Shown here piece after piece: positions 4,042 to 48,924 of a DNA stretch of 51,301 bases (the stretch's first letter is position 1; every line of letters begins with the position of its first letter). Location of the stretch: assembly GCA_017631385.1 (NCBI GenBank), contig JAGBTH010000029.1, positions 1 through 51,301 of the forward strand, read 5' to 3'. A program made the position numbers and the translations under genes. The DNA comes from Kiritimatiellia bacterium (GTDB lineage: Bacteria > Verrucomicrobiota > Kiritimatiellia > RFP12 > UBA1067). The notes below the pieces were generated by a model. That model did no database searches. It saw only the letters and a list, made by a program, of their open reading frames with translations, and was not told where the DNA came from.

Positions 4042-4319
4042 CCAAAATCCTTCACAGGCTTCTTTTTCCAAAAGACACTAAGAAATTCTCTTCCGTACCC
4101 AAAACTTCTTCTCTTCTTCCAACAAAATCCAGTTCCACCCCACCCCATCATCGCACTATTCCCCTAGACCAACCTCTTCACCATATCCCTTTCCAATAAA
4201 AAGCCTTTCAATCCAATAAAAACCACGTAATAAAACAACAAAATCCCGATTTTTAACAATACTTCCCCATCGCGATAAACTTCTCATCGCGTCATAACTT
4301 GAAAATTTTCAATTCGGGA

Positions 4320-5264: not shown

Positions 5265-5392
5265 TACTAAAAAAAAGCGGTTTTCTTAGAGTTGCGAATT
5301 TCTTAGGAATAGAATTTTCTATATCCCTAATTTACCCTATAAAGACCCTTCTTTGAAGTTAAGATTTTATCAACTGAGAACAGTATATCATA

Positions 5393-5420
5393 AAATGAGA
5401 ATTTTATGCGGAAAATTCTT
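5393..5420. repeat. Right copy of the perfect 28-bp inverted repeat
   Basis: AAATGAGAATTTTATGCGGAAAATTCTT is the reverse complement of 4014-4041. Lies 129-156 bp upstream of the 4320..5264 start. Confidence 0.9.
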
Positions 5421-5503
5421 TGCCTAAAACGCTCGCCTAAATAGTCGTCACCTTAATCCTAAAGTATGTGCAAGTTTCTCATGCGTTTACCATCCAAGAT
5501 TTC

Positions 5504-5848
5504 TCACAATCGAAAAATAAAATATGATAATATACCAATGAAAACAGGAGGGGAAGAACCCCCTCTGGTATCATATGAAGTATATGCTGCAGTATCTGCA
5601 TTTCCAAACCAGACACAATTTGTAAATGCGGAATTACCACAAGCCCCAGTTAATTTAACAATACCGCCATATTTGCCACCTTTATTCTCCTTCCCTATAA
5701 ATTTGCAACCGATAGCGACAACAGGCGAATTGGCAGAAAAGGCAGCTCCGCCAGTAGCATCACGCATATTTGCAGTCGATCCATTACCCACAAATGAACA
5801 ATCATTAAGAATAATTTTTTTCAATGATTTATACGAATGGCTTACCAT
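5504..5848 (-). pseudogene. Fragment of a right-handed beta-helix (Pmp-like GGA / FxxN repeat) surface protein
   Basis: 114-aa ORF with GGAAFSANS...FIGKEN...FTNCVWFGN motifs. It has no signal peptide and is far shorter than typical members. Confidence 0.35.
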
Positions 5849-5950
5849 TACTGCTATTAAAATTAAATTCTACATCGTCTTCAATAATAACAGGAGCTCC
5901 TTGGGCAAAACTTTTAGAAGCACTTCAAGCGAGAAAGTGTTTGACAGGGG

Positions 5951-6817
5951 TTAGAGCAAATCCAAAACCCGTACAGCTCCAATATTCGGTTGAGCTGGGT
6001 CTGCGTAGTATTTAGTAATAGTTTTAATATCATCACCGGAAATAGACACCGCCATTTCTGCGCCAAACTTCTGATAGATATGGTCGATACAAATCTTTCT
6101 AAGCTCATACGCCGCCTTTGAGCCATGAAAGCCGAGATTCCTTAAATCGCGATTTATATCATCGAATGTCTCTTTTGTAACATCCAGCCCCGACAATCGC
6201 CCATAATCATCGAACTTCTGCCATATCTCAGGATGAATAGGCCAATAAACCCGCCGCGCCGATGTAAGTTCCGTCTTATGCGGCGTATATGACAAAAACT
6301 TTCCATTCTCATTCTCTACGAAATTAGAATCCTTAAGTCTCAGTACATCTCCATTTCTCATTGCAAACTCGAGCATCATTGTTGCCGCAAACCAATACTC
6401 ACCTTCTTGCAATCTGTACCAGTTTTTAACCCTTGCTAACAACTCACTCGACGGTCTAATATAACGCGGCGCCTGCGCTCGAAACGCCGGTAACTCCAAC
6501 TTTGGAATCTCCCAACCAGCATCTTTATAATACGGTAGACACCATTTAGCGAAAAGTCCCCTTAATTTACAAATATAGCTCCACGCAGATAGTCGCGTCA
6601 TACCCCTAACCATAAAATCAGCAAGAGCCCTATCAATCGCCCTTCGCGTCAACGCCTCTACACTATCGCCCAATGCTACACCAGCAGCATTACAAACGGC
6701 AACCGTTCCTCTCAAAACATTTTTCTTCGTCCCTTCCCCAGGCCGACCAGTCTTCGCCCGCTCAATATCAGCGATTATTTTGTAGCATTTCAGTACTTGC
6801 ACAATCGTTGGTGTCAT
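5951..6817 (-). CDS. Divergent tyrosine-recombinase-like protein (288 aa)
   Basis: The track ORF 5951..7684 is trimmed to the ATG at 6817, which is preceded by AGGAGAG. Motif pattern: AMRNGD (Arg I), HKTELTSARRVYWPIHPEI (Lys strand), AAYELRK in place of HxLRH, SGDDIKTITKYY in place of LGHSxxxxTxxY. Confidence 0.5.
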   Translation of the reverse strand: MTPTIVQVLKCYKIIADIERAKTGRPGEGTKKNVLRGTVAVCNAAGVALGDSVEALTRRAIDRALADFMVRGMTRLSAWSYICKLRGLFAKWCLPYYKDAGWEIPKLELPAFRAQAPRYIRPSSELLARVKNWYRLQEGEYWFAATMMLEFAMRNGDVLRLKDSNFVENENGKFLSYTPHKTELTSARRVYWPIHPEIWQKFDDYGRLSGLDVTKETFDDINRDLRNLGFHGSKAAYELRKICIDHIYQKFGAEMAVSISGDDIKTITKYYADPAQPNIGAVRVLDLL

Positions 6818-7615
6818 ATATCTCTCCTTTTTGTCTTCTATTTTACATTTTATTACTGTGTTGCAGTAACGTTCGGATTGGAGTCCGCGAATATTGTTGG
6901 ATACCAGAATCAGGATTTGACTGGATCGCAGTACAATTCTGTTGGTGCTACTTTTGTCTCGGCTGGCAAGGATACATTCAAGCTCGGCGACATTACGGTT
7001 GAGGGCTTCCAGTATGATACTGAAATTCTTCAGGTTCTCAGCACTGAAAATGCGGCTACGATTGCACAATATGTCTATGTCACTCCTGAATGGGATGAAG
7101 AAGACTTTGATGGCGATGGCGCGGCAGTTGGCTGGTGGATTAAGGGCATGGAAGGCGAAGACGAAGGTCGTGCTGACAATATTGAGTTTGCTCCAGGCCA
7201 GGCGTTTCTTGCCAATTTTGTTTATAAGAAAGCTAAAATGACATATGCTGGCGAAGTAAAGCAAGGTGCTACTGAGCTCGATTTTACTGGTAAGCAGTAT
7301 GTTTTGGTAGCTAACTTCCTCCCGAAGGACATCAAGCTTGGAGAAGTTGCTGTTGAAGGTTTCCAGTATGACACCGAAATTCTTCAGGTTTTGAGCGCTT
7401 CTAATGCGGCTACGATTGCGCAATATGTTTATGTCACTCCTGAATGGGACGAGGAAGACTTTGATGGTGATGGCGCGGCAGTTGGCTGGTGGATCAAGGG
7501 TATGGAAGGTGAAGAGGGCGGCTCTGCCAATGATGTCGTTTGGAAGGCTGGCCAGGCAATGCTCGGCAACTTTGTGTACAAGAAAGCAAAGATGACCTTC
7601 CCCTCCGCTCTCTAA
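6797..7615 (+). CDS. Tandem two-domain 'IVGY-family' protein, cassette 1 gene 1 (function unknown); 31-codon hydrophobic leader then NIVGY
   Basis: 272-aa ORF. Internal direct duplication with a 354-bp period (EGFQYDTEILQVLS...GAAVGWWIKGMEGE twice). Paralogous to 16356..17075 and to the partial gene at the window end. The start overlaps the 5' end of the recombinase-like gene, so the true start is uncertain. Confidence 0.7.
   Translation: MHNRWCHISLLFVFYFTFYYCVAVTFGLESANIVGYQNQDLTGSQYNSVGATFVSAGKDTFKLGDITVEGFQYDTEILQVLSTENAATIAQYVYVTPEWDEEDFDGDGAAVGWWIKGMEGEDEGRADNIEFAPGQAFLANFVYKKAKMTYAGEVKQGATELDFTGKQYVLVANFLPKDIKLGEVAVEGFQYDTEILQVLSASNAATIAQYVYVTPEWDEEDFDGDGAAVGWWIKGMEGEEGGSANDVVWKAGQAMLGNFVYKKAKMTFPSAL
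6889..6903 (+). repeat. 15-bp core GAATATTGTTGGATA, identical to 51156-51170 (candidate att core or recombination site)
   Basis: Exact direct repeat. In both copies it encodes (x)NIVGY, lies 70-125 bp from a divergent recombinase start, and is exactly 31 codons after an in-frame ATG. Confidence 0.6.
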
Positions 7616-7670
7616 GAGAATTTCGTACGATGCATAGTGTATCGTGCTAAAACAAAAAAGGAAACAAAAA

Positions 7671-8201
7671 ATGAAGAAAATCATGATTATGCTTAGTGCG
7701 ATCGCTCTCGCTGTTTGCGCTAATGCTGCTTCAGTAAACTGGCAGTCCGGCGCTGTCTATACGACAGACGGTACCGCTAAGGTTGGCAAGGGCAACACCG
7801 ATTACCTCGTTACCATCAACTTCTTTACGGATGCTGCTGGTGCGAACGCCGTTACTGGTTTGACGGGCGATCTTTCGCTCGGTCAGGCGGGAACTGGCTC
7901 CAAGTATTCGGGCACGGTTGATGGCTTTGCCGCTGGTACAACCTACTATACTCAGATCCTCATTACGACCGAAGGTTTTGAGGCAAAGTCTGCGATCGTC
8001 GCATTCACGACTCCCTCTAACGGAAATGTCGCCTTGAACTTCTCCGATGGTGGTGGTTTTGATACCGAGTATACCTTCAGCACTCAGACTGCTGGTGCTT
8101 GGCAGGCTACTGGTTCTTCGGGCGATGTCCCGGAGCCGACTTCTGGTCTCCTTCTCCTCGTTGGTGCTGCTGCCCTCGCTCTCAAGCGTAAGGTTGCTTA
8201 A
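7671..8201 (+). CDS. PEP-CTERM sorting-domain secreted protein (cassette 1 gene 2)
   Basis: AAGGAAA RBS. Signal peptide MKKIMIMLSAIALAVCANA. C-terminal VPEPTSGLLLLVGAAALALKRKVA is a PEP motif plus TM helix plus basic tail. Confidence 0.85.
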   Translation: MKKIMIMLSAIALAVCANAASVNWQSGAVYTTDGTAKVGKGNTDYLVTINFFTDAAGANAVTGLTGDLSLGQAGTGSKYSGTVDGFAAGTTYYTQILITTEGFEAKSAIVAFTTPSNGNVALNFSDGGGFDTEYTFSTQTAGAWQATGSSGDVPEPTSGLLLLVGAAALALKRKVA

Positions 8202-8223
8202 TCCAATAGGATAAACAAACCAT

Positions 8224-8262
8224 AAGGCCCGACCGCATCGCGCGGGCGGGCCTTTGACATTT
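8224..8262 (+). terminator. Rho-independent terminator after the PEP-CTERM gene
   Basis: 12-bp GC-rich stem with one mismatch (aaggcccgaccgc / gcgggcgggcctt) and a 5-nt loop, followed by a T-containing tail. Confidence 0.65.
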
Positions 8263-8277
8263 TAGGGGCGAAGCGTA

Positions 8278-9294
8278 ATGACATGGCAAGTTACATACAG
8301 AGATAAAAACGGATCTCGCGCATACGAATATATTGAAGCCGATTCCAAGAATGCGGTTTTTGCTGTTTTGAAGGAAAAAGGCATAAATGCGATTTCAGTA
8401 GTGGAATCTAATTCCAAGGTCAAGCGCAAGCAACCTAAAGCACGAAAGGTTTCGTCTTTCGGCATAAGGCCACCTTATATTTTAGCAGTCGGATTTTTGG
8501 CGGCCAGTGCGATATTTTTGGCAGTGTTCGTTGACTGGGGCGAAAAAGACAAAAGCACGAACGAAGAGATAAAACCCACCCCCCCAAAAAAAGAGCTCAG
8601 CGCAGTTCCGAAACATATTGAGGCACCGCGTGAACCGAAGGAAGAGTACATCAAACCTGAAGAGCCAAAGCATGTCATGGTTGACGGCAGAAAGGTTTAC
8701 AGAAGCGCGACCAATGATGTCGGCAAGGTTGTCACCAATGCATTCGGCAAGACCATGATCATTGAGCGGGTTGTTACGCCCAGCGGTCCCATGAAAAACG
8801 GAGAATCGTTGACTCCGCGCAGGATTTTCAAATATGACAGTGAAGTCGCCATCGATACGCTGATGAACATGGATGTCGGATACAAATCCCTTATGATGCT
8901 ACCAGCGAACATGGATGAAGACTTCAAGAAGGCTTTAGCGGAGAAGATTGAAATTCTGCCCGAGGACAGCGAAGATGAAATTCGGCGCAAGAACGAAATG
9001 ATAGAACTTAAAAAGGAACTTGGACAACGAATAGCAGCCGGAGAAAAGATTTCGCAGATTGCTGCCGAAACTCTCGCACATTACAATAAAATCGCAAATA
9101 TCCGCGATACTCTTTTGCAGGAAATCATCAAGTCGGAGGATGAGGGCATGAGCGGAGATGAGCTGGAGGATCTTTACGAGGCGGCAAATACGATGCTCAA
9201 GGAATATGACGCGCTGCCGATTCATTCACCGAAGGTTCGCAAAGCCATCATCAGAGAGAGGCTTGAGCGCAACAAGGCAAGGCGTAGGCAATAA
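8278..9294 (+). CDS. Single-pass membrane protein with a GspF/PilC-N-terminal-like beta-alpha-beta domain and a conserved C-terminal helical domain (cassette 1 gene 3)
   Basis: 338 aa. N-terminus MTWQVTYRDKNGSRAYEYIEADSKNAVFAVLKEKGINAISV. TM helix PPYILAVGFLAASAIFLAVFV. The C-terminal ...EILPEDSEDE...IAAGEKI pattern is shared with 10106, 12580 and 14243. Confidence 0.7.
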   Translation: MTWQVTYRDKNGSRAYEYIEADSKNAVFAVLKEKGINAISVVESNSKVKRKQPKARKVSSFGIRPPYILAVGFLAASAIFLAVFVDWGEKDKSTNEEIKPTPPKKELSAVPKHIEAPREPKEEYIKPEEPKHVMVDGRKVYRSATNDVGKVVTNAFGKTMIIERVVTPSGPMKNGESLTPRRIFKYDSEVAIDTLMNMDVGYKSLMMLPANMDEDFKKALAEKIEILPEDSEDEIRRKNEMIELKKELGQRIAAGEKISQIAAETLAHYNKIANIRDTLLQEIIKSEDEGMSGDELEDLYEAANTMLKEYDALPIHSPKVRKAIIRERLERNKARRRQ

Positions 9295-9329
9295 CAATAG
9301 AAAGAATTTAACATTAAAGGAGATTCACC

Positions 9330-10109
9330 ATGAAAACACTTATTGCGTTTTTGACAGCTTCTATGGTTACTGTCGTTTTCGCGGCAGAAGATGTCAAAGC
9401 CGAAAAGAACCAGGAAGCCAAAAAGCCAAGCATAGCACAGCGCGTAGGAGGATTTTTGATCGACTACAAGGCAGCCAGGGGCAAATACATGTTCATCAAC
9501 TGCCAGGACAAGCTCGATATGAAATTGATCAACGGTTTGGCTGTTGGACTCAAAAACGATTATTCGTGGCTTTTCGAGTGTGTTGACGGCGAAAAGTCGG
9601 TCCGTACAATCAAGGAGGTCGTGGCTCTGAAAGCGAAGCATGGCGCACTCGCAGCGACAGCGTTCGTATATTGTGACGATTTGCCTTTTGCACTTACCGT
9701 ACCAGAAGCAAATCTGTCGATTGTAAACGTAAAAGAGCTTATGGCTGACAATCCAAAGGCGATTTTGCTTGAAAACCGTCTGGTAAGAGCAACCTTGCGA
9801 GCTTTTGCCTTTTCTCTCGGAGCCGGCTATACGACTTTTGAAGCGGGAGTAATGCAACCTATCGCATCTGTGGCAGATCTCGACAGATTTTCTTCGAATT
9901 TCATTCCTCCGGACACAGCAAATGCCGCGCTTCAAAATGGAGGCAAAATCGGTTTCAAGCCATATCGCAGAACTACTTACAAGAGAGCATGCAAAGAAGG
10001 ATGGGCACCCGCGCCTACGAACGAGTTTCAAAAGGCAGTTTGGGATAAGGTACACGCTACGCCCAAAAATCCTTTGAAGATTGAATTTGACCCTAAGAAA
10101 GGTCGATGA
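9330..10109 (+). CDS. Secreted protein of unknown function (cassette 1 gene 4)
   Basis: AAAGGAG RBS and signal peptide MKTLIAFLTASMVTVVFAAE. The C-terminus EGWAPAPTNEFQKAVWDKVHATPKNPLKIEFDPKKGR is nearly the same in the paralog 13374..14225. Confidence 0.75.
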   Translation: MKTLIAFLTASMVTVVFAAEDVKAEKNQEAKKPSIAQRVGGFLIDYKAARGKYMFINCQDKLDMKLINGLAVGLKNDYSWLFECVDGEKSVRTIKEVVALKAKHGALAATAFVYCDDLPFALTVPEANLSIVNVKELMADNPKAILLENRLVRATLRAFAFSLGAGYTTFEAGVMQPIASVADLDRFSSNFIPPDTANAALQNGGKIGFKPYRRTTYKRACKEGWAPAPTNEFQKAVWDKVHATPKNPLKIEFDPKKGR

Positions 10110-10897
10110 AATATACATACGCATATAAGACCTCTGATGGGGTGCGGCATGAAGAAACAATGAATGCCGCATCTCGCGAAGAGGTTTTTACTGCGCTTCG
10201 AGCTAAGGGCATAAAGGCGATTAAGGTTGTCGCCGCTGACGGATCTAAAGCTAATGGTGAGATACGCGGCATCCGTAAACGAGTAGTTGCGGCGATTGTA
10301 ATTGCCGTTGCAGCTGCTGTTGGTGCTATAGCGTATTTCGGCGGCTCACGCTCCAAAACTAATAGCATTTCAAGCACAACCTCTAACGAAAATTCCAATG
10401 CTATTGCAGTCATCGAGACTCCATCTCAAGACAATACGAGACGACAGGTTATTGGTGATGTCGCTATAATCGAAAAAGGCATCCGCAACGGATGGAGCGA
10501 CGTCTTTGAGCTTGAGGGCGATAGGTTTCTCGCTTCATTCGCTATACCTGGCGTTAAGGCTGGACAGCGTAATACTACCGAAAAGGAATTTGCGACAGCC
10601 CTTGAGAATAAATGCGAGATTAAGCCTAACGACTCAATCGAAGTTAAACAGATAAAAGCAATGGTCGAGGGAATGAAAGAGGAGGCTCGCCGTTACATCG
10701 CTGCCGGTGGATCAATTGTCTCTTATGGTAAAAGACTTACCGAGAGACAGGACGCGGAAATTGCCATTTATGAGAGGATAAAAACTGACCTCGAAAAGGC
10801 TCATTCATCTATGAGCGAAGATGAATACATGATTTACTGGGAAAAGCGGAATGACGAACTTAGAAATCTCGGGATTAAGACGATTGGATTGGAGTGA
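10106..10897 (+). CDS. Single-pass membrane protein with a GspF-N-like domain (cassette 1 gene 5)
   Basis: 263 aa with an ATGA overlap onto the upstream gene. MKYTYAYKTSDGVRHEETMNAASREEVFTALRAKGIKAIKV followed by a TM helix. Roughly 70-80% identical by eye to 12580..13377. Confidence 0.8.
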   Translation: MKYTYAYKTSDGVRHEETMNAASREEVFTALRAKGIKAIKVVAADGSKANGEIRGIRKRVVAAIVIAVAAAVGAIAYFGGSRSKTNSISSTTSNENSNAIAVIETPSQDNTRRQVIGDVAIIEKGIRNGWSDVFELEGDRFLASFAIPGVKAGQRNTTEKEFATALENKCEIKPNDSIEVKQIKAMVEGMKEEARRYIAAGGSIVSYGKRLTERQDAEIAIYERIKTDLEKAHSSMSEDEYMIYWEKRNDELRNLGIKTIGLE

Positions 10898-10948
10898 GGG
10901 GCGGTAGAAGGTTTTAGGTGAAGGTTAGAGGTGAAGGTGAACAGCGGA
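10884..10948 (+). repeat. Direct-repeat copy A: last codons of gene 10106..10897 plus a GGTGAAGG-type purine array
   Basis: TTGGATTGGAGTGAGGGGCGGTAGAAGGTTTTAGGTGAAGGTTAGAGGTGAAGGTGAACAGCGGA recurs with a few changes at 12048-12115, and inverted at 12534-12588. Confidence 0.85.
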
Positions 10949-10960
10949 TTTTGAGATTTT

Positions 10961-11006
10961 CCCTCTTCCCTTTTCCCACTTCCCAATTCCCTCTTCCCTC
11001 TTCCCC
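10961..11006. repeat. Orphan pyrimidine array (CCCTCTTCCC-type; complement GGGAAGAG repeats)
   Basis: ccctcttcccttttcccacttcccaattccctcttccctcttcccc. No complementary partner was found nearby. Confidence 0.8.
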
Positions 11007-11052
11007 ATTTTTTTTGGTAAAATAGAGGCGTAATTTAGGTGGTAAATAAGTT

Positions 11053-11274
11053 ATGCTCAAATCTGATAAAATTTCATTTGCTGACGTATGTGCGATGGTT
11101 GACGACTATCGTAGTATGTGCTTTTGGAATATGGCTGAAGATTTTAAGCCTAAAAATGCTGGCCATTTAAAACTTGTAGCCGAGAGATTAGAAAATTACG
11201 GCGATATGGTGGCGTACAGATTCGCAGGAAGGATTAGAGAATGGCTCTCTCAGAATTCCAATCTTCAACATTAA
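11053..11274 (+). CDS. Small partner protein of the AbiEii-like nucleotidyltransferase (putative antitoxin)
   Basis: 73-aa ORF overlapping the downstream NTase gene by 34 nt. Assigned from two-gene architecture only. Confidence 0.45.
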   Translation: MLKSDKISFADVCAMVDDYRSMCFWNMAEDFKPKNAGHLKLVAERLENYGDMVAYRFAGRIREWLSQNSNLQH

Positions 11275-12047
11275 AACTCCTTGCGAAAAATAGACGAGTC
11301 AGTGAAGGTAGTTATGTCGCTGGCGGGTTAGCTCTTAATCATAGCCTTAAAACGCCGCGCCTTTCTCGAGATATTGATATTTTTAATGATTCGATTGAGG
11401 CTATGCATACGAGCTGGCGCTTAGATCGTGAAACTCTGATTAATGAAGGCTACTCAGTAAAGGTTCTGCGTGAAATACGAACATTTATTGAAGCTGAAGT
11501 TTCTAAGGGCTCTGAACGTACTGAAATTCAATGGGGTACTGATAGTTCGTTTAGATTTTTTCCATTGTGTGAAGATGAAACTACAGGCTTTACGCTTCAT
11601 CCAATAGATTTAGCGGCTAATAAACTTTCAGCATTGGTTGGTAGGACTGAGCCTAGAGATTGGATTGATGTAATTGAGAGTGTTAAAAATCTTCAACCCT
11701 TGGTTTATCTGTTATCAGCTGCTTGTGGTAAGGATCCAGGTTTTTCGCCGGCATCTATGTTGGAGTATGCTGCAAGAAGGCGATATACACAGATTGAAAT
11801 TGATGAAAATATCATTCCATCAGGAATCTATGATGCCGCCGAACTGTGTAAATTTTGGCGCGAAGCGGTCGATCATGCTAGAGAAGAAGTGTTGTTGTTT
11901 CCTCGCGATAAAGCTGGGACATGTGTTCTTGATAAATTCGGTAATCCATTTCGCGGTGATATGACGGAACTTTGTTCGGCTATTGATTCTGGTGATGTTA
12001 TCTTTCACGAGGGCCATATTTGCGGCGCATGGCCTAGAATAATATAG
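11241..12047 (+). CDS. Nucleotidyltransferase AbiEii/AbiGii (DUF1814) family toxin-like protein
   Basis: YVAGGLALNHSLKTPRLSRDIDIFND matches the GG(T/L)AL...R.S.D(I/L)D(F/I) NTase motif of the family. 268 aa is the typical size. Confidence 0.7.
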   Translation: MALSEFQSSTLKLLAKNRRVSEGSYVAGGLALNHSLKTPRLSRDIDIFNDSIEAMHTSWRLDRETLINEGYSVKVLREIRTFIEAEVSKGSERTEIQWGTDSSFRFFPLCEDETTGFTLHPIDLAANKLSALVGRTEPRDWIDVIESVKNLQPLVYLLSAACGKDPGFSPASMLEYAARRRYTQIEIDENIIPSGIYDAAELCKFWREAVDHAREEVLLFPRDKAGTCVLDKFGNPFRGDMTELCSAIDSGDVIFHEGHICGAWPRII

Positions 12048-12115
12048 TTGGATTGGAGTGAGGGGGTAGATTGGAAGGTTTTAGGTGAAGGTAAAAGGTG
12101 AAGGTGAACAGTGGA
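12048..12115 (+). repeat. Direct-repeat copy B (includes the pseudo gene end TTGGATTGGAGTGA); its inner 38 bp (12074-12111) is the left arm of a perfect inverted repeat
   Basis: See 10884-10948. 12074-12111 (GAAGGTTTTAGGTGAAGGTAAAAGGTGAAGGTGAACAG) is the exact reverse complement of 12534-12571. Confidence 0.9.
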
Positions 12116-12159
12116 ATTGAAGATTTTTAAGAGGTGAAGGTGAAAGGTGAAGGTGAACA

Positions 12160-12564
12160 GTGGAAGATTTTGGTTATAGAAAATTAATAGTTTGGCAAAA
12201 GTCGGTTGAGCTTGTAGGCCTTGTGTATGAGGAAATTAAGAAATTTCCTTTAGATGAGCGCTTTGCATTAATAGATCAGCTTCGTAGGTCGGTGCTGTCG
12301 ATTCCTTCAAATATAGCTGAGGGCAATGGACGGATGACGAATAAGGATTACGCGCATTTTCTCGCTATTGCTAGAGGCTCATTATATGAAACTATGACGC
12401 AGCTTGAGATTGCGAAAAATCTTGGATATCTTTCAAGTATCGAGAAAATTGAGAGCGTTGCTGTAGAAATTGGACGTATGTTAGGGGCAATGCTTAAGAA
12501 ATATGGATCAATTCAAGAAAAGATACCCCACCTCTGTTCACCTTCACCTTTTACCTTCACCTAA
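12160..12564 (+). CDS. Four-helix-bundle protein, 23S rRNA intervening-sequence protein family (TIGR02436/PF05635-like)
   Basis: GTG start. YRKLIVWQKS...IDQLRRSVLSIPSNIAEGNGR...FLAIARGSLYETMTQLEIAKNLGY is the family signature. The C-terminal tail is translated from the repeat arm. Confidence 0.85.
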   Translation: MEDFGYRKLIVWQKSVELVGLVYEEIKKFPLDERFALIDQLRRSVLSIPSNIAEGNGRMTNKDYAHFLAIARGSLYETMTQLEIAKNLGYLSSIEKIESVAVEIGRMLGAMLKKYGSIQEKIPHLCSPSPFTFT

Positions 12565-12588
12565 AACCTTCTATCGCCCTTACTCCAA
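12534..12588. repeat. Right inverted arm (perfect for 38 bp, imperfect extension into the stop of gene 12580..13377)
   Basis: CTGTTCACCTTCACCTTTTACCTTCACCTAAAACCTTC... is the reverse complement of 12074-12111. Confidence 0.9.
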
Positions 12589-13377
12589 ACCTACCGTCTT
12601 AATTCCTAAATTTCTTAGCTCTTCGTTGCGACGCTCCCAGACGTCCATGAACTCGTCTTCGCCGAGGGTATCTTTAGCTTTTTCAATTTCTGACTTAATC
12701 CGTTCATAGATTGCAATCTCCGCGTCTTGGCGTTCGGTGAGGCGTTTACCGTAGTCGACGATTGTGCCGCCTGCTGCGATATATTGCCGCGCTTCGTCTT
12801 TCATACCCTCGACCATCGCCTTAATCTGCTGCGCTTCAGGGGAGTCAGTAGGATTTATCTCGCACTTTGAATTTATCGCAGCTTCAAATTCTTTAAGCGA
12901 AGTATTGCGCTGACCAGCCTTAACGCCTGGTATTGCGAATGAAGCTAAGAACCTATCACCTTCGAGTGTGAAGACGTCCGCCCAACCTGTGCGAATACCC
13001 TTAGCTACGATAGCTTCATCGCCAAATACCTGACGACGCGTTTTATCGACATTCGCCAAGTTCGCATAGGGATTACTCTCAGCCTTACCTAATGATTCTT
13101 TGGTACTCTCAGGCGCGTTGGTTGCCGCACTCTTGCTTCCGCTTAAGTAGGCTACAACTCCTACACCAAGCGCAACAAACGCCACCAGAGCCGCTACAAA
13201 GCGCTTTCTAAGGCCACGAACCTCGCCGTTAGCTTTAGAGCCGTCAGCAGCGACCACTTTAATCGCTTTTATGCCGCGTTTACGCAATTCAGCGAACACC
13301 TCTTCTCTCGAAGAGGCGTTCGTTGTGTCTTCATGACGTATTCCGTCACTCGACTTATATGCGTAAGTGTATTTCAT
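12580..13377 (-). CDS. Single-pass membrane protein with a GspF-N-like domain (cassette 2 gene 5)
   Basis: 265 aa, paralog of 10106..10897 (MKYTYAYKSSDGIRHEDTTNASSREEVFAELRKRGIKAIKV...). Confidence 0.8.
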   Translation of the reverse strand: MKYTYAYKSSDGIRHEDTTNASSREEVFAELRKRGIKAIKVVAADGSKANGEVRGLRKRFVAALVAFVALGVGVVAYLSGSKSAATNAPESTKESLGKAESNPYANLANVDKTRRQVFGDEAIVAKGIRTGWADVFTLEGDRFLASFAIPGVKAGQRNTSLKEFEAAINSKCEINPTDSPEAQQIKAMVEGMKDEARQYIAAGGTIVDYGKRLTERQDAEIAIYERIKSEIEKAKDTLGEDEFMDVWERRNEELRNLGIKTVGLE

Positions 13378-14225
13378 CGACCTTTCTTAGGATCGAATTC
13401 AATCTTCATTGGATTTTTGGGGGCGGCGCGGACTTCGTCCCAGATTGCTTTCTGGTACTCGTTCGTTGGCTGGGGCGCCCAGCCTTCCATAACAGCGAGT
13501 TTGTAGGGGATGTGACGCGCTCTTTTAACGCCGAACTTAGCCATTTGAGCATACATCTTTTGGAAGTTCATTGGCTGCATAACCTGATATACGAGCGCAT
13601 CGAGTTCCTTAAGATTATAGACAGGCTGGAGTACATCGTTCTTATAAGGCGCATAACCGATACCACCTACAAAGCCGAGCGCTCTCCAAACTTCCTTAAT
13701 AAGTCTCGTTTCAGGTGCTACGGGGTCATTACCGCCGAGATAACGCTTAGCATTGATAACAGCGATACGCTCCTCGGGCATTACGCAAAGACCAGGGCAA
13801 TCGCTCGATTCAGCGATGAGAATCACATACGCGGCATTATTAGCCTTAAGCGCGGCGAGCGCTTTGGCGTATGGCTTTTCATTCGCGTTAAGCTTAGACT
13901 TATCAATCTTAACATTCGTCTTAGATAAATCGCCGAATACTTCGGCGAAGCGATCTGCCGCGATGCCGGGCTTTTCGCGTGTATCGACTACGACAACGCT
14001 TACGCCAACTGCCGCGACATCGAGAAAGCCGCCTGTCTTTTTAAGAACAGCTGGGCGATTTTCAAGTTCAGCGCGTGTTTGCTTTTTATCAGCCTTTTTC
14101 TGGCCTTCAGCCGCCTTTAGAGCTGCTGCTTCAGCCATCTTTTTAATTTGGTCTTCTTGCGAGTTGTTAGCGAGAATGGGAGCCGTGATAAGAAGCGCGG
14201 CGATTATGGCTAGTGTTGCTTTCAT
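13374..14225 (-). CDS. Secreted protein of unknown function (cassette 2 gene 4)
   Basis: 283 aa with signal peptide MKATLAIIAALLITAPILA. C-terminus shared with 9330..10109. Confidence 0.75.
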   Translation of the reverse strand: MKATLAIIAALLITAPILANNSQEDQIKKMAEAAALKAAEGQKKADKKQTRAELENRPAVLKKTGGFLDVAAVGVSVVVVDTREKPGIAADRFAEVFGDLSKTNVKIDKSKLNANEKPYAKALAALKANNAAYVILIAESSDCPGLCVMPEERIAVINAKRYLGGNDPVAPETRLIKEVWRALGFVGGIGYAPYKNDVLQPVYNLKELDALVYQVMQPMNFQKMYAQMAKFGVKRARHIPYKLAVMEGWAPQPTNEYQKAIWDEVRAAPKNPMKIEFDPKKGR

Positions 14226-14242
14226 ATTGTGAACCTTTAATC

Positions 14243-15118
14243 TTAATTGGAGTTTTTATGAGCGTCAATAATATCATTAATGTGTTTAGGAATTTTAGCG
14301 TCGGGTAAGCCTAATTCTCTAAACTTCTGATTTAAAGTGTCGCGATAAAGCGCGGCGGATTTAGCATCACCTTTTTTTAGAAATCCAACGATATCCTTTA
14401 AGGTTGACGCGGTTAAGCCCTTTTGAATAGTAGCGGTTTGGCGCATTTCCATTACAAAATCATCAAAGCTCGCGCCAGTAGTTTCCATATAATCGAGGGC
14501 GAGTTCCTTAACTTCGGCAGCTGCTGTCTTTTTACGAATGACCTCTTCTGAATCATCAGGGTTAATTGTAACAGGTTTACGAAGCATTTTCATAACTTCA
14601 GCTTTATCTAAGCCCATAAGCATTCCAGGGATAAAGTTGCCATCTTGGAGATTCATGCCGATAAGATTCTCTTCAAAGGCGTTATCGAATACTGGCTTAG
14701 GAGTAATATCTACCCAATTACCCTCGTGATCGCATTTATAGACAGCTCCATGAGAGTGTACAGTTCTAAATTCACCAGGAGCAGGAACGGGGAAGGTCAA
14801 AACGCGACCATCGGGCGTTTGCATTGTGCCAGGCTTCTTAACAAATGGGGGCTTTTCTTTTTTAGGCGCGGCGATGGGCTTCTCGGTCTTTTTAACGAGA
14901 TGGGTCGAAGCCTTAGGCGCGGGAGTGCGCTTTTTAGGGGTGTCGGTTTGCGCAATGGGCGCGGATTCGGGCTTAGAGAGGAAGAAATAAAGCACGATGG
15001 CGCCAAATAGCGCGACAAGAGCGCAAATAGCGTATGGTAGAGCGCGCAGTTTGCGCGTCAATTTAGGTGTCTCATTTTTAGGCGAATTATTCGCTCTATC
15101 TGATCCGTTCCAGCCCAT
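14243..15118 (-). CDS. Single-pass membrane protein (cassette 2 gene 3); has the C-terminal domain of the family but lacks the GspF-N-like domain
   Basis: 291 aa with TM helix LPYAICALVALFGAIVLYFFL. ...INPDDSEEVIRKK... aligns with ...ILPEDSEDEIRRK... of 8278..9294. Confidence 0.7.
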   Translation of the reverse strand: MGWNGSDRANNSPKNETPKLTRKLRALPYAICALVALFGAIVLYFFLSKPESAPIAQTDTPKKRTPAPKASTHLVKKTEKPIAAPKKEKPPFVKKPGTMQTPDGRVLTFPVPAPGEFRTVHSHGAVYKCDHEGNWVDITPKPVFDNAFEENLIGMNLQDGNFIPGMLMGLDKAEVMKMLRKPVTINPDDSEEVIRKKTAAAEVKELALDYMETTGASFDDFVMEMRQTATIQKGLTASTLKDIVGFLKKGDAKSAALYRDTLNQKFRELGLPDAKIPKHINDIIDAHKNSN

Positions 15119-15350
15119 AAGTTTTCTTTCTCTTTATTTTTTTATGTCTCACGCGAGATGCGCCGAAGATGAGCGAAGCGAATCGGAGGGTAGATTCGGC
15201 GAAGCCGAACCCGAAGGGTGCTCAAGCATCCGCGTTCGCTTTCTTTCGCGAAGTTTTTAGTGGTGGTTAGATTTTTTTGTTTGTTGTTATTTTAACGCAG
15301 AGGCGCAGAGACGCAGAGTTTTTTAATGGATTATTTAATTTTTTCTTTTT

Positions 15351-15580
15351 TTAATTAACTCCGATGGTTGTTCAAAGGGCTTACGCTAACGCTTCAGCTA
15401 GAGCTTCGCACCTTTCAACCACATTCTGTAGACTCCATAGTGTAGTTATTAGAGCGGCCTTCGGCCGAATTATGCGACGAAGTCGCACCCTTAAAAAATT
15501 TAATCCAGCACATATATAGTCGTTAGATAGTGCGAAGCAGTGAAGCGGTAGCGAGAACCCAAACGCTCGGAGTTAATTTA
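15351..15580. other. About 230-bp long imperfect hairpin (MITE-like element or structured RNA), strand undetermined
   Basis: Outer stem AATTAACTCCGA (15353-64) / TCGGAGTTAATT (15567-78). Inner helices GCTAACGCTTCAG..GCTTCGCAC / GTGCGAAGC..TGAAGCGGTAGC. Two apical mini-hairpins (CGGCC-TTC-GGCCG and TGCGAC-GAA-GTCGCA). Confidence 0.5.
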
Positions 15581-15659
15581 ATAAAATCAAAAATCTTTAA
15601 CATTCCTTTAAAAACTTTGCGGACTTCGCGTACTTTGCGTGAGTTATTTCGGACCTCTC

Positions 15660-15699
15660 AACAAAGTTAGAAAGCCCGCCCGAATAATCGGACGGGCTT
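15660..15699 (-). terminator. Rho-independent terminator after the cassette 2 PEP-CTERM gene
   Basis: Stem aagcccgcccg / cggacgggctt with one mismatch and a 6-nt loop, followed by a T-rich stretch on the minus strand. Same position as the cassette 1 terminator. Confidence 0.6.
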
Positions 15700-15755
15700 A
15701 CCGTTTTGAATACTAATGACTAATCACTAACGACTAATCACTAATACTTAACCTA

Positions 15756-16286
15756 TTAGGCGCGGCGGCGACGGAGAGCGAGGCCAGCAACGCCGAGGAG
15801 GAGGAGAAGACCAGAGGTCGGCTCCGGAGCAACCTCGAACTGGTTAGCAGCGAGATTGGCCTGCTGGTTAGCAAAACCGAAGGTCTTACCAGTGTCATTG
15901 TTATAGAGCGTCTGAGAAGCAACAGACGTGTAAGAAGCAGTCTTACCGTCAGCAGCATACATAAGAATGAACGCCTGATAAGTGTTAGCAGCATCGCCAC
16001 CAGCAGCATCATAGGTGATGCTCTTGCCAGAGTTTGCAGCAGTTGTAGTTGCAGCACCTGTTGAGCCAACCGTTCCGCTAGCGAACTGGTAAGCAGAGAT
16101 ATCCTTACCATCCTTAGCGAGAGCAGCGATTTGAGCAACAGATTCTACGCCGTTCATACCGATAATATAAACGCCATAGTCACCACCAGCGTAGTTCTTA
16201 GCACCAGCGCAGGTCCAACCTACCGCAGCAGCGTTAGCCGCAATGCCAAGCATAACAGCAACAGCCGCAATCATGATTTTCTTCAT
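15756..16286 (-). CDS. PEP-CTERM sorting-domain secreted protein (cassette 2 gene 2)
   Basis: AAAGGAAAAA RBS, signal peptide MKKIMIAAVAVMLGIAANA, C-terminal APEPTSGLLLLLGVAGLALRRRRA. Confidence 0.85.
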   Translation of the reverse strand: MKKIMIAAVAVMLGIAANAAAVGWTCAGAKNYAGGDYGVYIIGMNGVESVAQIAALAKDGKDISAYQFASGTVGSTGAATTTAANSGKSITYDAAGGDAANTYQAFILMYAADGKTASYTSVASQTLYNNDTGKTFGFANQQANLAANQFEVAPEPTSGLLLLLGVAGLALRRRRA

Positions 16287-16355
16287 TTTTATTTTTCCTT
16301 TGTTTTTGTTTTTTAGGCACGTTACACAATGCAACGCACGTAAATTGGTTTAATA

Positions 16356-17075
16356 TTAGTAAGGGCAAGCGATTTCGATATCAAAGGTAAGACCATTCAT
16401 GTTGTCAATTGCAAAACCAGCACCAGGCTGAAGAGTTACATCAACAACATTGCAACCGTCGTCTCCCCAATATGCAGTTGTAGCCTTTTCTTCAGGATCC
16501 ATAGAAGCGTCCCAATAGCAATACATTGTCTCAGGATTACCCTTAGGTCCAACAATCTGCATAACGTCACCCCAACCAACAGAACCTGCACCATCGTCAT
16601 TTAAAACAACAGCACTAAGATTAATAGGAGCGGGGAAGGGATTACCAGTCCAGTTAAGACCTTCGCGAGCGGCAAAAGTAACCTTCTCGGAAGGAACCTG
16701 GCCAGCGTTCTGAATTGCATATTCGTAGGCATTCATGTTATCAAATGCAATTCCATCACCAGCATCAAAGGATACATTAACGGCATAGCAACCATCGTCA
16801 CCCCAATATGCAGTTGTAGCCTTTTCTTCAGGATCCATTGAAGCGTCCCAATAGCAATACATTGTCTCAGGATTACCCTTAGGTCCAACAATCTGCATAA
16901 CATCACCCCAACCAACAGAACCAGCACCGCCGTCATCAAGCTTGATGTCCTGAATGTCAGTCGTGTTAGCACCAACCGTGAAGAACTGAGGAGCATACCA
17001 GTTCAAACCCTCACGAGCAGCCGTGTTATTATACCCAACAAAAGTAGCTATAGTCGAAAAAATGAATGCTGACAC
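16356..17075 (-). CDS. Tandem two-domain 'IVGY-family' protein (cassette 2 gene 1), apparently 5'-truncated
   Basis: The ORF opens only at a GTG immediately after an in-frame TGA. Just 11 residues precede FVGY, and there is no signal peptide or SD. Internal 336-bp-period duplication, about 95% identical by eye. Confidence 0.6.
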   Translation of the reverse strand: MSAFIFSTIATFVGYNNTAAREGLNWYAPQFFTVGANTTDIQDIKLDDGGAGSVGWGDVMQIVGPKGNPETMYCYWDASMDPEEKATTAYWGDDGCYAVNVSFDAGDGIAFDNMNAYEYAIQNAGQVPSEKVTFAAREGLNWTGNPFPAPINLSAVVLNDDGAGSVGWGDVMQIVGPKGNPETMYCYWDASMDPEEKATTAYWGDDGCNVVDVTLQPGAGFAIDNMNGLTFDIEIACPY

Positions 17076-17117
17076 TCATTTCACCCAATAAAAATAGGGG
17101 TGAAATCAATACTGACG

Positions 17118-17170
17118 TTTTCCTTCCCTCGTTTTCCCCGTTCTCGTTTTCTCCCCATTTCTCCCGTTTT
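17118..17170. repeat. Orphan pyrimidine array (CGTTTTCYCCC-type)
   Basis: ttttccttccctcgttttccccgttctcgttttctccccatttctcccgtttt, located immediately outside the truncated end of cassette 2. Confidence 0.7.
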
Positions 17171-17340
17171 ACACGGTTGAAAGATACAGTAATCGTCAGT
17201 AAGCTTCAGAACTGTCAGTAAGCGCTCGAAGCCTTTTTACCCCATGCGCGGTTTTAGGTAGGTCACTATGGCGTACACCTTCTGCCACACCTGGAACATA
17301 CACCAATCCCCTCATCCCCGTCAATGCAAAAGTAAAAAAG

Positions 17341-18678
17341 TTAAATTTTCTTAGGCAGCCTTAAGTTATGAAACACAACCTTTCCCGCAACGCTATCGGG
17401 TTGCATCAAGCCAACCCTTATACACTTTCCTTTATAAGGAATTAGATCTTCATATTTAGGCAAATTTTTTATGGTCGCGCCATCTACAATCTGGCTCAAC
17501 CACTCATAATCTTTTTGATAATCTTCAGATGTATAATTTGGCTTAAAACACAATTTCACCTCACACAAACCCGTTATCGAATCATCACTACAAAAAATCG
17601 AAAAAATATATTTACGCGACAAAGCCCAAAGTTCAATCCATGAAATTTCAAGGCAAACCGTTTTAGTTATTAGATTCTCATTCCAGTTAAAGTCGCTCCC
17701 AACCCTAAACTCCTCCCTATATCTAAAATTCAAAAAATCTACTGTTTTTTTACTCACCTCATCGCTAAATATCTCTTCACAAGAATCTTCCTTAAGTTTT
17801 CTTTTGCGTTCTTCCTGATCGGCTAAATCTTTCGCCCTATACTCCTCCCATTTCTTATGAGCGTCCTTTCGACTTTTTATCCAAGCGCGTTTGTCCTGCT
17901 CCCTCTTTCGATGAGGATCATTATAAGCATCTCTTATTTCTTTCAACTCCCGCTCAAATTCTAATATTGAACCATCAAAACACATGCTTATGAATTTATC
18001 CCTATTCACCCGCGCACAAATACGAAAAGCGTCATCATTGACTTTCGGAACTATACATATTAAATCCTCATCAGACTCTGGATTAAGCATAGTTCCATAA
18101 CAATCTAACCAAAGAAATCTTTGAGAATTCACCCACGCTGACGGTAAGATCTTTTCAAACTGATTTTCCAGGCTCCATAACGATTGATTTGCTTGAGACA
18201 ATCTGTTTTTATGTTTTTCAAACTCCTCTAAAAAATTTCTATCATGTTCATCCCTCGTCATTGAGACGATCCACATCATTGTGTCATAAAAACACTCTCT
18301 TTTTCTCGCCTCCGCCGCAGTCATTGGAGAATATTGTACTTCCAATACAATCCCCATATTAGTCTTAATGTCTGCAATATGCTTGAGAGAATCCCTTTGT
18401 ATTACCACCTCCTGCATTTCTTCTGGAAATTTATTCTGCCAGTACAAATGCCATCGACCTTTAGGCTGATACCAATCATCACATTGGTTATTCTTATCAA
18501 TATGACACCAATGATGAGCTCTTATATCACCCTTTTTTGCAACAAGCCGACTTCCACATAAAGGACAACTTCCATGCTGCGCCCTTTGTGCATCTTCTAT
18601 ATCAAGCCTAACGCCATCAACTATCGCGAAACGCCAGGCGCACCCCAAAGAACAATTTATATTATCTACGTCTGACAT
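17341..18678 (-). CDS. CoiA-like (competence protein CoiA family) nuclease-domain protein with a roughly 250-aa uncharacterised C-terminal extension
   Basis: CPLCGSRLVAKKGDIRAHHWCH zinc-ribbon/His motif, then WHLYWQNKF...HIADIKT...VLEVQYSPM...MMWIV, matching the CoiA PD-(D/E)xK layout. Confidence 0.65.
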   Translation of the reverse strand: MSDVDNINCSLGCAWRFAIVDGVRLDIEDAQRAQHGSCPLCGSRLVAKKGDIRAHHWCHIDKNNQCDDWYQPKGRWHLYWQNKFPEEMQEVVIQRDSLKHIADIKTNMGIVLEVQYSPMTAAEARKRECFYDTMMWIVSMTRDEHDRNFLEEFEKHKNRLSQANQSLWSLENQFEKILPSAWVNSQRFLWLDCYGTMLNPESDEDLICIVPKVNDDAFRICARVNRDKFISMCFDGSILEFERELKEIRDAYNDPHRKREQDKRAWIKSRKDAHKKWEEYRAKDLADQEERKRKLKEDSCEEIFSDEVSKKTVDFLNFRYREEFRVGSDFNWNENLITKTVCLEISWIELWALSRKYIFSIFCSDDSITGLCEVKLCFKPNYTSEDYQKDYEWLSQIVDGATIKNLPKYEDLIPYKGKCIRVGLMQPDSVAGKVVFHNLRLPKKI

Positions 18679-18735
18679 TTTTACTTTTATTGCATATTAC
18701 TCCCATCATAAATATCTTTTCGCTAACAAAACCTT

Positions 18736-18876
18736 CTATATAGTCGCAATAAGAGCATCAAGAGCCTTACGGAGGCGCTCAATTTCTTCAACCTCGTTAT
18801 GCTTAATAGCATACGCCAGGAGTCCTTCAAGACGCCTTATCTGCGCTAAACGCTTATTCTTTTCTTCTTTATTCAT
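18736..18876 (-). CDS. Small 46-aa helical ORF between the DUF3800 and CoiA-like genes
   Basis: MNKEEKNKRLAQIRRLEGLLAYAIKHNEVEEIERLRKALDALIATI. Below the track cutoff and co-oriented with its neighbours. Confidence 0.3.
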   Translation of the reverse strand: MNKEEKNKRLAQIRRLEGLLAYAIKHNEVEEIERLRKALDALIATI

Positions 18877-18906
18877 GCTATGGTTATTATACCATAATCG
18901 AACAAA

Positions 18907-48809: not shown

Positions 48810-48831
48810 ACGGCTGTTTGGCGGTTATCTT

Positions 48832-48906: not shown

Positions 48907-48924
48907 ATTTGATATAATAATGAA

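Follow-up and report, generated by a model that had tools for sequence, protein, structure and literature searches.

Two convergent five-gene envelope cassettes in a Kiritimatiellia bacterium as probable alternative versions in a site-specific, operon-scale DNA switch

Introduction

Why would a bacterium keep two diverged copies of one five-gene cassette pointing at each other? The question is raised by a stretch of 51,301 nucleotides from a Kiritimatiellia bacterium (assembly GCA_017631385.1, contig JAGBTH010000029.1; hereafter the window), in which the genes g1 to g5 run along the plus strand as the left arm (L1-L5) and are mirrored on the minus strand as the right arm (R1-R5). Programmed DNA inversions that vary the cell surface are well known from Bacteroides, mycoplasmas, enterobacterial plasmids and phages. 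The Kiritimatiellae and Lentisphaerae, in turn, are abundant, almost uncultured glycan degraders of animal guts. Comparison of the window with related loci and contigs (numbered L001, L073 and so on) suggests that the two arms are probably alternative operon versions within a site-specific DNA switch of the shufflon type, which would operate at the scale of whole operons and serve surface variation. Gene coordinates were taken from the open reading frame (ORF) listing of the window together with gene calls on the source contig (ENA ERZ28653726 scaffold_212).

Gene 1 is truncated at two recurrent sites

Extension of 69 gene-1 copies upstream in frame, with the classes tallied by hand, separated about 20 copies bearing a start codon and a signal peptide (an MKK... 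leader, e.g. MKKLMFAATAAV-CAAVTFGLESANIVGY) from about 47 leaderless ones. Approximately 23 of the 69 diverge upstream exactly before C(A/G)(A/T)V, a position designated core1, and approximately 24 diverge exactly at VGY, designated core2. One leader-bearing and three silent copies are present in each of L033 and L087. Both truncation points are in frame and recur across many species, and the gene-1 bodies behind them are intact ORFs. The core1 site is a palindrome in the last signal-peptide codons ("CAAVT"), reading GTTACTG-TGCCG-CAGTAAC in the window lineage and TACTG-N5-CAGTA in other lineages. The core2 site is a palindrome at the IVGY codons, the best copies of which read GGAATAT-TGTTGG-ATATTCC.

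The window contains one core1 and three core2-type sites, and no gene-1 leader (an MKKL-type start plus signal peptide) was found anywhere in it, all three gene-1 copies being leaderless. L1 (6878-7615, plus strand), called as a protein of 245 aa with two tandem beta-sandwich domains, has its core1 at 6853-6870 (TTACTG-TGTTG-CAGTAAC, in "CVAVT" signal-peptide codons) and its core2 at 6889-6905 (GAATAT-TGTTGG-ATACC, in "NIVGY" codons), both on the plus strand. R1 (16356-17075, minus strand), which has a stop codon immediately upstream, is joined at VGY to an unrelated flank belonging to a phage-like block; the core2-type junction lies at 17028-17045 on the minus strand (ACTTTT/GTTGGGTAT, the slash marking the joint) and the N-terminus reads VSAFIFSTIATF/VGY. 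The third gene 1, whose 5' part occupies 51157-51301 (plus strand) before running off the window, stands behind a perfect core2 (GGAATAT-TGTTGG-ATATTCC, 51155-51174), which forms a unit on the plus strand (51092-51174) with CTGCAC repeats at 51092, 51103 and 51148. More generally, repeated (T)TTACTGCAC/TTCTGCAC motifs resembling arm-type sites are present upstream of the joint in VGY-cut copies.

Directly upstream of R1, a hairpin at 17077-17105 has a 9-bp stem (ATTTCACCC...GGGTGAAAT) with a folding free energy (dG) of -11.6 kcal/mol and z -3.9. It is 96.6% conserved in L001, where it lies approximately 275 bp upstream of a leader-bearing gene 1.

Gene-1 bodies are joined to alternative flanks

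The contigs were compared by their flanks. X denotes the flank with int-like, a divergent recombinase-like gene described below; E the flank with promoter and leader; Y the chromosomal genes adjoining it (PDDEXK_3 and fucosidase); Z(c) the flank next to a flavodoxin gene; E2 and E3 further leaders; and A and B the two cassettes of the L073-type locus. Contigs of this type come from many samples and carry a g5 90% identical to L5. The order X, rightward A, leftward B was present in seven contigs among those listed. L073, L074 and L077 reach the far end; there B adjoins E-Y, and the core1 sites at the two borders are inverted relative to each other. L075 ends in Z(c) instead. Inverted core1 pairs likewise bracket the double cassette in L001 and L070 as in L073, one site lying at int-like (X) and the other at the leader (E).

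In L073 the E-Y flank is joined to B1, with A1 beside int-like. In L099 the same flank (fucosidase-PDDEXK_3-E) is joined to A1, and in L098 E is joined to A1 followed by 7.6 kb of A and the centre. The alignments of L099 and L098 to L073 gave 99.96% and 98.6-99.9% identity, with a 20-bp overlap at core1. On these alignments, inverting the 11.3-kb double cassette of L073 with breakpoints inside core1 gives exactly the L098/L099 arrangement. The initial annotation of the window had proposed that the arms might be alternative antigenic versions, and the double cassette of this related locus does occur in both orientations relative to a fixed promoter and leader flank.

Single gene-1 bodies occur behind up to five upstream contexts. 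The A1 body is found behind X (21 contigs), Z(c) (7), E2 (6), E (3) and E3 (1), and the B1 body behind E (19 contigs), X (15) and Z(c) (2). The changeover to X in L078 falls exactly at core1, immediately followed by B1-specific sequence. The joints to Z(c) in L075, L076 and L078 are at VGY. The DNA of L1-L2 itself (95-98% identical) occurs behind three other flanks: in L097 the match runs from 6896 onward at 98.2% with Z(c) upstream, in L105 it follows an X flank with the TGCCG spacer, and in L104 it follows a further silent flank. The leader E2 (MKKMMLGLAASL-CVAVT), on contigs from the same study, has the core1 variant TGTGTTGCAGTAAC, identical to that of window L1. The TGTTG spacer of the window core1 had been considered as a disabling mutation, which was rejected given that this expression leader carries the identical variant.

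Within one metagenome assembly, a 141-nt node (leader, core1, ...AATATTGTTGG) is identical in L093 and L094, which diverge right after the core2 spacer into different gene-1 bodies; a third body in that assembly adjoins int-like. One end of L082 (the right end) stops 1 bp outside a core1 site, and the other runs 41 bp into the X flank. Taken as comparative evidence between sequences, these junctions make a mechanism of DNA rearrangement well supported.

Two recombinase genes adjoin the sites

The int-like gene (5951-6817, minus strand), divergently oriented to L1, encodes a 288-aa divergent tyrosine-recombinase-like protein. It overlaps a long antisense ORF and was missing from the initial annotation. 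The protein gave no Pfam match even at E<=1, falls outside the PF00589 family model, and has no match in the PDB by sequence or profile. Its family alignment nevertheless keeps R154, K181, Y-E-L-R240, G-D-D and Y270/Y271 at the spacing of tyrosine recombinases. The catalytic R, K, R and Y are invariant, and the two His positions are occupied by Tyr237 and Asp262, in the register of our own alignment to the window integrase. Comparison with bona fide integrases by hhalign gave E 9.2e-5 and a probability of 59% over 225 columns spanning both domains. Moreover, distant int-like relatives match PF00589, namely P0427 with 26.8 bits (cut-off 27.1, E 5e-6) and P0309 with E 0.003. The family is small, with 182 representatives among 1.84 billion clusters. 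At the other end of the window, a canonical tyrosine integrase (49945-51033, minus strand) matches PF00589 with E 1e-24.

Each gene is found next to one type of site. int-like lies 36 bp from core1 in the window and at most 1.4 kb upstream of 10 gene-1 copies, all 10 of which are cut at core1, and integrase homologues lie 146-169 bp upstream of VGY-cut gene-1 copies in three of three loci (L017, L023 and L087). We infer that core1 is the substrate of int-like and core2 that of the canonical integrase.

L001 (16344-16410) has an extra 47 bp between int-like and core1, bounded by two TTACTGT half-sites, and the window (6836-6856) has a single half-site there. As a result of the 47-bp deletion, the window has an in-frame ORF that starts at TTG 6797 and has a hydrophobic N-terminus; it is probably fortuitous.

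The two recombinase genes, separated by 44 kb, share a 29-nt direct repeat (26/29; 5928-5956 and 49922-49950) that takes in their stop codons and the sequence just 3' of them. The L001 junction (17290-17334) looks recombinant, with the int-like side from one copy and the distal flank from the second, and the motif CTGTCAAACACTTTCTC of the repeat region was found only in the window lineage. As the ends of a 44-kb prophage the repeats are unconvincing, with no terminase inside and the integrase outside.

A proposed operon-scale switch

In the proposed mechanism, g1-g2 would be a variable exported pair, with g1 secreted and g2 anchored through its PEP-CTERM signal, and g3-g4-g5 a conserved membrane and periplasm module. 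The tail-to-tail pair of cassettes would form the body of the switch, the 5' end of gene 1 holding the nested core1 and core2 sites. Each genome would have a few expression sites, in which a promoter and start codon are followed by the beginning of the signal peptide as far as core1 or core2, along with many silent, leaderless gene-1 bodies, each with its own downstream genes. int-like would serve core1, and the canonical integrase core2. A crossover between inverted sites would flip the double cassette and thereby fuse the other arm in frame to the leader, and recombination with more distant sites would move bodies among leaders. Only leader-fused copies are presumably expressed, and their products may assemble into a surface structure, variation of which would be of use against phages or the host. 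All three gene-1 copies of the window would then be in the silent state, with L1 parked beside int-like; neither the leader E2, whose core1 variant matches, nor a core2 leader, E', falls within the window.

Several observations weigh against this switch. The int-like protein has neither of the conserved pentad histidines and scores below the Pfam threshold, and the assignment of int-like to core1 and of the integrase to core2 comes from adjacency only. The window has neither a leader nor a second core1 to complete a pair, and the R1 site is degenerate on both arms; the local copy may have been partly rewired by the neighbouring phage-like block. No promoters were identified in the scan for sigma-70 sites, which performed no better than on shuffled sequences. 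The alternative junctions come from different samples or strains, or from one metagenome assembly, and not from one clone. Finally, some contexts, Z(c) among them, imply long-range or inter-locus events, which could instead be integrations.

The phage-like block and possible integration at gene 1

This last point leads to the strongest alternative, in which core1 and core2 are attachment sites of integrative elements: a temperate podophage, and maybe a second element with int-like and beta-helix tailspike-like genes, would integrate into the 5' end of gene 1, and the junctions would be products of integration or excision in different strains. Positions 19756-49300 of the window form a T7/epsilon15-like podophage structural block that encodes a portal (PF12236), a GP7 capsid protein, a gp14-like protein and a 4623-aa protein, the portal being 23-25% identical to those of epsilon15/phiV10/AF-type phages. 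The block as a whole (17076 to ~51150) is bounded by inverted core2-type junctions, at R1 and at the gene 1 starting at 51157. The CTGCAC repeats on its integrase-side flank resemble arm-type sites. Beyond the right end of the window, as seen in L087, the integrase is followed by four g1-g2 mini-cassettes, beginning with the gene 1 at 51157 and including one with a full leader (E'), then by g3-g4-g5 and a terminase-like ORF. On the other side, the X flank encodes a putative Pel9A-like beta-helix protein of 1116 aa (1153 aa in L073), and Z(c) and E-Y are different chromosomal contexts.

Integration alone nevertheless fits the loci poorly. The compact loci L033, L045, L050 and L018 combine int-like with inverted mini-cassettes and carry no phage genes, which is a classic shufflon layout. 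L073 and L098/L099 differ by a clean inversion between inverted sites with both flanks conserved, and the core2 sites bounding the phage block are themselves inverted, whereas simple insertion would leave them direct. The cassettes are also nearly missing from viral collections, with one IMG/VR contig and no INPHARED record, and the idea that they are generally phage-borne was rejected on these counts. We therefore regard attachment sites as an improbable explanation in place of the switch, although the two are compatible with each other; the phage may attach at core2 or may have become caught up in the shufflon.

A coupling of both is conceivable, if rather unlikely. The phage-like block carries the core2 integrase and its own g1-g2 mini-cassette near an arm-site-like flank, and IVGY of the host gene 1 could therefore serve as attB, with the phage copy of gene 1 as attP, leading to lysogenic conversion by leader capture. 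If so, integration at the expression site would replace the expressed host g1-g2 by the phage-borne pair, and the integrase would keep shuffling host and phage cassettes. Should g1-g2 be a phage receptor, the result would be a combined device for superinfection exclusion and antigenic variation.

The 4623-aa ORF (19756-33627, minus strand) occupies the position of a T7 gp16-type internal virion protein and is unusually large for a podophage module; a near-identical protein on the source contig has precomputed ddrB-ParB and RadC domain matches. Downstream of int-like lie a 314-aa protein and the 1116-aa protein (567-3917, minus strand), the L073 counterpart of which (1944-5405, 1153 aa) has weak Pel9A-like beta-helix matches suggestive of a tailspike- or depolymerase-like protein. 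The source contig continues with 571-aa, 256-aa, 1525-aa (Laminin_G_3) and Tle1-like proteins. These proteins may be the tail-fibre end of the same phage-like element.

Layout of the arms and the similarity between them

The mirrored order of five genes on opposite strands agrees with the ORF coordinates. In the left arm (plus strand), L1 is followed by L2 (7671-8201), L3 (8278-9294), L4 (9330-10109) and L5 (10106-10897). In the right arm (minus strand), R5 (12580-13377), R4 (13374-14225) and R3 (14243-15118) precede R2 (15756-16286) and R1. The 4-nt overlap between g4 and g5 noted previously is present in both arms. So is the terminator placed after g2: RNA folding gave strong hairpins with a U-rich tail 3' of L2 (8221-8256, plus strand; dG -23.8 kcal/mol, z -4.2) and 3' of R2 (15672-15702, minus strand; dG -26.1 kcal/mol, z -5.2). 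A promoter and terminator scan had shown no enrichment over shuffles and missed both g2 terminators, because their T-runs are interrupted, and the regions were folded instead. The arms are asymmetric in detail: g2 and g3 are separated by 76 nt in the left arm but by 637 nt in the right arm. The right-hand gap (15119-15755) is non-coding, and within it 46 nt at the R2 terminator region (15663-15708) are 100% identical to L001 and present in both L001 arms. An Rfam search of 5000-20000 gave a single sub-threshold match, to RcsR1, in the same gap (29.7 bits, gathering score 60).

The initial annotation described the region as a 10-kb imperfect palindrome, which holds for synteny and protein families; as DNA, only about 1 kb aligns. 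The main alignment pairs 9996-10947 with 13487-12531 at 71-75% identity, and two small islands pair 7619-7688 with 16346-16269 (82%) and 8130-8183 with 15827-15774 (85%). Since only the end of g4, g5 and these islands align, the palindrome is one of gene order and protein families and not a 10-kb sequence. Similarly, the flanking non-coding arms, thought to be nearly identical, amount to one 49-nt repeat (10899-10947 and 12531-12579) with 92% identity. Graded similarity of the arms was confirmed by BLASTP and DNA comparison, g5 being highest and g1 lowest. The g5 proteins are 69% identical over their full length (E 6e-135), those of g4 41% over the C-terminal 143 aa (E 3e-38) and those of g3 28% over 72 aa (E 1e-3); g2 is similar only in the anchor and the signal-peptide and ribosome-binding-site region, and g1 shows no significant BLASTP similarity.

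From this gradient, ongoing gene conversion or hairpin-mediated (cruciform) exchange had been proposed to keep the centre of the two arms similar. The innermost genes are indeed the most similar, and the 49-nt inverted repeat lies just outside both g5 stop codons. However, L5 and R5 are only 66% identical in DNA with a longest identical run of 14 nt, L4 and R4 50% with a longest run of 18 nt, and L5 is no closer to R5 than it is to the g5 genes of other species (61-72%). The 49-nt repeat, moreover, is a member of a family that flanks the inserted 23S_rRNA_IVP gene. Mean pairwise amino acid identity across the families falls in the same order (g5 43%, g4 30%, g1 25%), and the gradient between the arms therefore reflects different constraint on each gene and not conversion. 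Central exchange thus finds no support and is very improbable; it is site-specific recombination that exchanges sequence, and it does so at the outermost part of each arm, within the 5' end of gene 1.

Static paralogous duplication, with the leaderless copies as decaying pseudogenes or assembly artefacts and no DNA rearrangement, deserves the least credence of all: the data are mostly metagenome-assembled genomes (MAGs) and short metagenome contigs and the R1 site is degenerate, but the two discrete in-frame truncation points recur across many species in front of intact gene-1 bodies, and the alternative junctions, at 99.9% identity, come from k=141 assemblies, in which a repeat of only 14-20 bp cannot cause a mis-join.

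Within each gene 1, the two domains are 87-89% identical in DNA (6978-7515 and 16394-16936), and L1 and R1 are only ~22% identical as proteins. Other gene-1 paralogues show the same pattern, the tandem halves evolving in concert within each gene.

Distribution of the cassette and its proteins

The suggestion of a dedicated envelope module is supported by the recurrence of the 1-2-3-4-5 synteny in dozens of loci. g5 has 2,616 database homologues and 67 loci in species-representative genomes, and the named loci are mostly from gut or rumen MAGs of Kiritimatiellae and Lentisphaerae (yak, goat, sheep, deer and human). Mapping of the g1-g5 families with hidden Markov models distinguished two architectures. 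Type I loci (the window, L001, L007, L014, L016, L017, L024, L070, L073, L076 and L078) consist of convergent five-gene pairs or alternating arrays of them. In Type II loci (L018, L033, L035, L036, L038, L045, L050 and L087), g1-g2 mini-cassettes of either orientation are arrayed next to one g3-g4-g5 set, and most of these loci also have a recombinase gene there. The two architectures therefore identify g1-g2 as the variable module and g3-g4-g5 as the constant one.

The ten arm proteins were searched against Pfam, NCBIfam and PHROGs, and only PEP-CTERM scored above threshold. Previously none of the five products could be named beyond this signal; the statement holds for family thresholds, and is qualified by PF28597 matches of g5 and g3 homologues and by an archaemetzincin-like fold of g4. 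For g2, which comprises a signal peptide, a variable region and the PEP-CTERM anchor, L2 (22.2 bits) and R2 (23.4 bits) exceed the TIGR02595 cut-off of 16, with PF07589 at threshold. No exosortase turned up among the scanned ORFs of the window. The tandem-domain nature of g1 is evident as an internal duplication of 184-207 nt, 87-89% identical, in each copy. The AlphaFold model of g1 has two beta-sandwich domains (predicted local distance difference test, pLDDT, 78). Foldseek searches with it against the PDB and viral structures (BFVD) gave no match at E<=1e-3, and kinship with tail fibres or receptor-binding proteins is therefore without support.

The g3 and g5 families overlap through a common N-terminal domain, and both have a module of ~60 residues, one transmembrane helix and a helical domain; g3 and g5 are bitopic membrane proteins with the module on the cytoplasmic side, and g5, the most conserved gene of the cassette, ends in a helical C-terminal domain. 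The first ~60 residues weakly resemble the start of GspF/PilC (TIGR02120, E 0.13; PilC 3jc8, E 0.58), and g5 and g3 homologues have weak or faint precomputed matches to PF28597 (T2SSF_N). The polytopic organisation with two GspF domains that defines the GspF/PilC platform (TIGR02120/PF00482) was not found in either. As judged by sequence, g3 and g5 share a module with GspF/PilC without being members of the family.

g4 is a secreted protein, and the L4 model is confident (pLDDT 90.8). Foldseek matched it to four archaemetzincin-type entries, 3zvs, 2x7m, 3lmc and 4axq (E 2.6e-7 to 3.3e-6, probability 1.0, target template-modelling score, TMt, 0.59-0.65), with a weak profile match to 2x7m (E 0.019). 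The latter apart, PDB sequence and profile searches with g5 and g4 gave nothing significant. The zinc-binding motif HExxHxxGxxH is missing, the active-site helix reading RATLRAFAFSLG, and the family consensus R..KE..RAFA...G has no conserved His. The modelled fold suggests that g4 is probably a catalytically dead metzincin-like protein, a binding protein rather than a protease. We infer that g3-g5 constitute an inner-membrane and periplasmic assembly module for the exported, anchored g1-g2 pair.

Comparison with known inversion systems

A matching geometry is that of the G segment of phage Mu and the C segment of P1, in which two tail-to-tail gene sets share one invertible segment with the recombinase gene adjacent, the promoter and constant 5' part lying outside and the crossover site inside the first gene. 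Gin and Cin are serine invertases, and the Mu products are tail-fibre proteins. The present locus shares the tail-to-tail geometry, the outside promoter and 5' part, the crossover inside the first gene and the adjacent recombinase gene. It differs in that the candidate enzymes are of tyrosine-recombinase types and the products carry export signals and a PEP-CTERM anchor, and in that the predicted g1 structure has no significant similarity to viral proteins.

In the vsa locus of Mycoplasma pulmonis with the HvsR tyrosine recombinase, as far as it is summarised in PMC2268961, one expression site provides promoter, ribosome-binding site and 5' coding part, and site-specific inversions within the coding region fuse the bodies of silent genes lacking a 5' end to this site (PMC2268961). 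On that summary, both systems have an expression site, 5'-less silent genes, an intragenic inversion site and a recombinase gene adjoining the locus. A single lipoprotein gene is switched in the vsa system so summarised, whereas a multi-gene operon (2 or 5 genes) would be switched here, at two nested sites with two different recombinases. The products described there are lipoproteins, and here PEP-CTERM and secreted proteins of Gram-negative bacteria of the Planctomycetes-Verrucomicrobia-Chlamydiae (PVC) group.

The shufflons of polysaccharide utilisation loci (PULs) in Bacteroides (susC-susD; B. thetaiotaomicron BT1033-52 and B. fragilis) shuffle operons behind a single promoter (bioRxiv 10.1101/521070). 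Their site lies in the susC 5' end, and the authors proposed evasion of phages that target surface proteins (bioRxiv 10.1101/521070). Common to both are the swapping of whole operons, a short site at the 5' end of the first gene and an occurrence in gut bacteria. In contrast, TonB-dependent transporters are involved there and the g1-g5 cassette here, in a different phylum, and the tail-to-tail flip of twin operons and the dual-site design are not described in that system. The R64/IncI shufflon with Rci swaps the C-terminal ends of one gene, pilV (PMC9045228, PMC11852207). It resembles the present locus in having a tyrosine recombinase beside a cluster of segments in both orientations and an alternative exported protein of adhesin type, while here the N-terminal leader would be constant and complete genes or operons swapped, and sfx is unrelated to core1 and core2.

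A targeted literature search for such a switch in Kiritimatiellae or Lentisphaerae, or with PEP-CTERM proteins, found nothing. In the literature that was found, such a switch is not described for this taxon or this cassette; nor are a twin flip at operon scale, two nested sites around the signal-peptide codons that each pair with one type of recombinase, or the divergent family of int-like. The locus would thus extend programmed inversion to the PVC group and to whole five-gene operons, and add a nested dual-site design in signal-peptide codons, each site apparently with its own recombinase, as well as a recombinase family too divergent for standard models. It also defines a large uncharacterised envelope cassette that combines a GspF-N-like module on single-pass proteins with a putatively dead metzincin and a PEP-CTERM partner, and whose variability makes it a likely target of phages or host immunity. 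The switch would account for the fragmentation of these regions in metagenome assemblies, and the conserved site sequences offer a handle for detecting switching at the level of reads in existing gut metagenomes.

The variable centre and further repeats

The space between the convergent g5 genes (10899-12579) is a variable islet of toxin-antitoxin and abortive-infection genes. In the window it holds a 73-aa ORF, an AbiEii-type toxin gene (11241-12047), a 23S_rRNA_IVP gene (12160-12564) and a small family of purine-rich repeats (10899-10947, 12074-12176 and 12531-12579), which flanks the IVP gene. Related strains have other toxin-antitoxin or Abi genes at this position: the centre of L070 (10868-13973) carries AbiEii/AbiEi_4 plus AAA_14/DUF4143, and that of L073 (10722-14977) two ParE/Phd pairs, AbiEi_4, an extra g5 and DUF3800. 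DUF3800 genes adjoin the cassettes in 8 loci.

A second 23S_rRNA_IVP (four-helix-bundle) gene, 60% identical to the first, is located at 48830-49300. Both are framed by inverted purine-rich short-period repeats (12074-12579 and 48832-49806). Those of the first are of the GGTGAAG type, with arms (12074-12114 and 12531-12571) that are 98% complementary, and those of the second of the GGGATGA type, a related block of which lies at 30132-30291 inside the 4623-aa ORF. L009 and L012 have an IVP gene between g4 and g5. The IVP gene with its repeats looks like a small repeat-bounded insertion cassette.

Finally, a perfect 28-nt inverted repeat (AAGAATTTTCCGCATAAAATTCTCATTT) at 4014-4041 and 5393-5420, its copies 1351 nt apart, brackets the 314-aa ORF (4320-5264), and the stretch so delimited could be another invertible or mobile unit.

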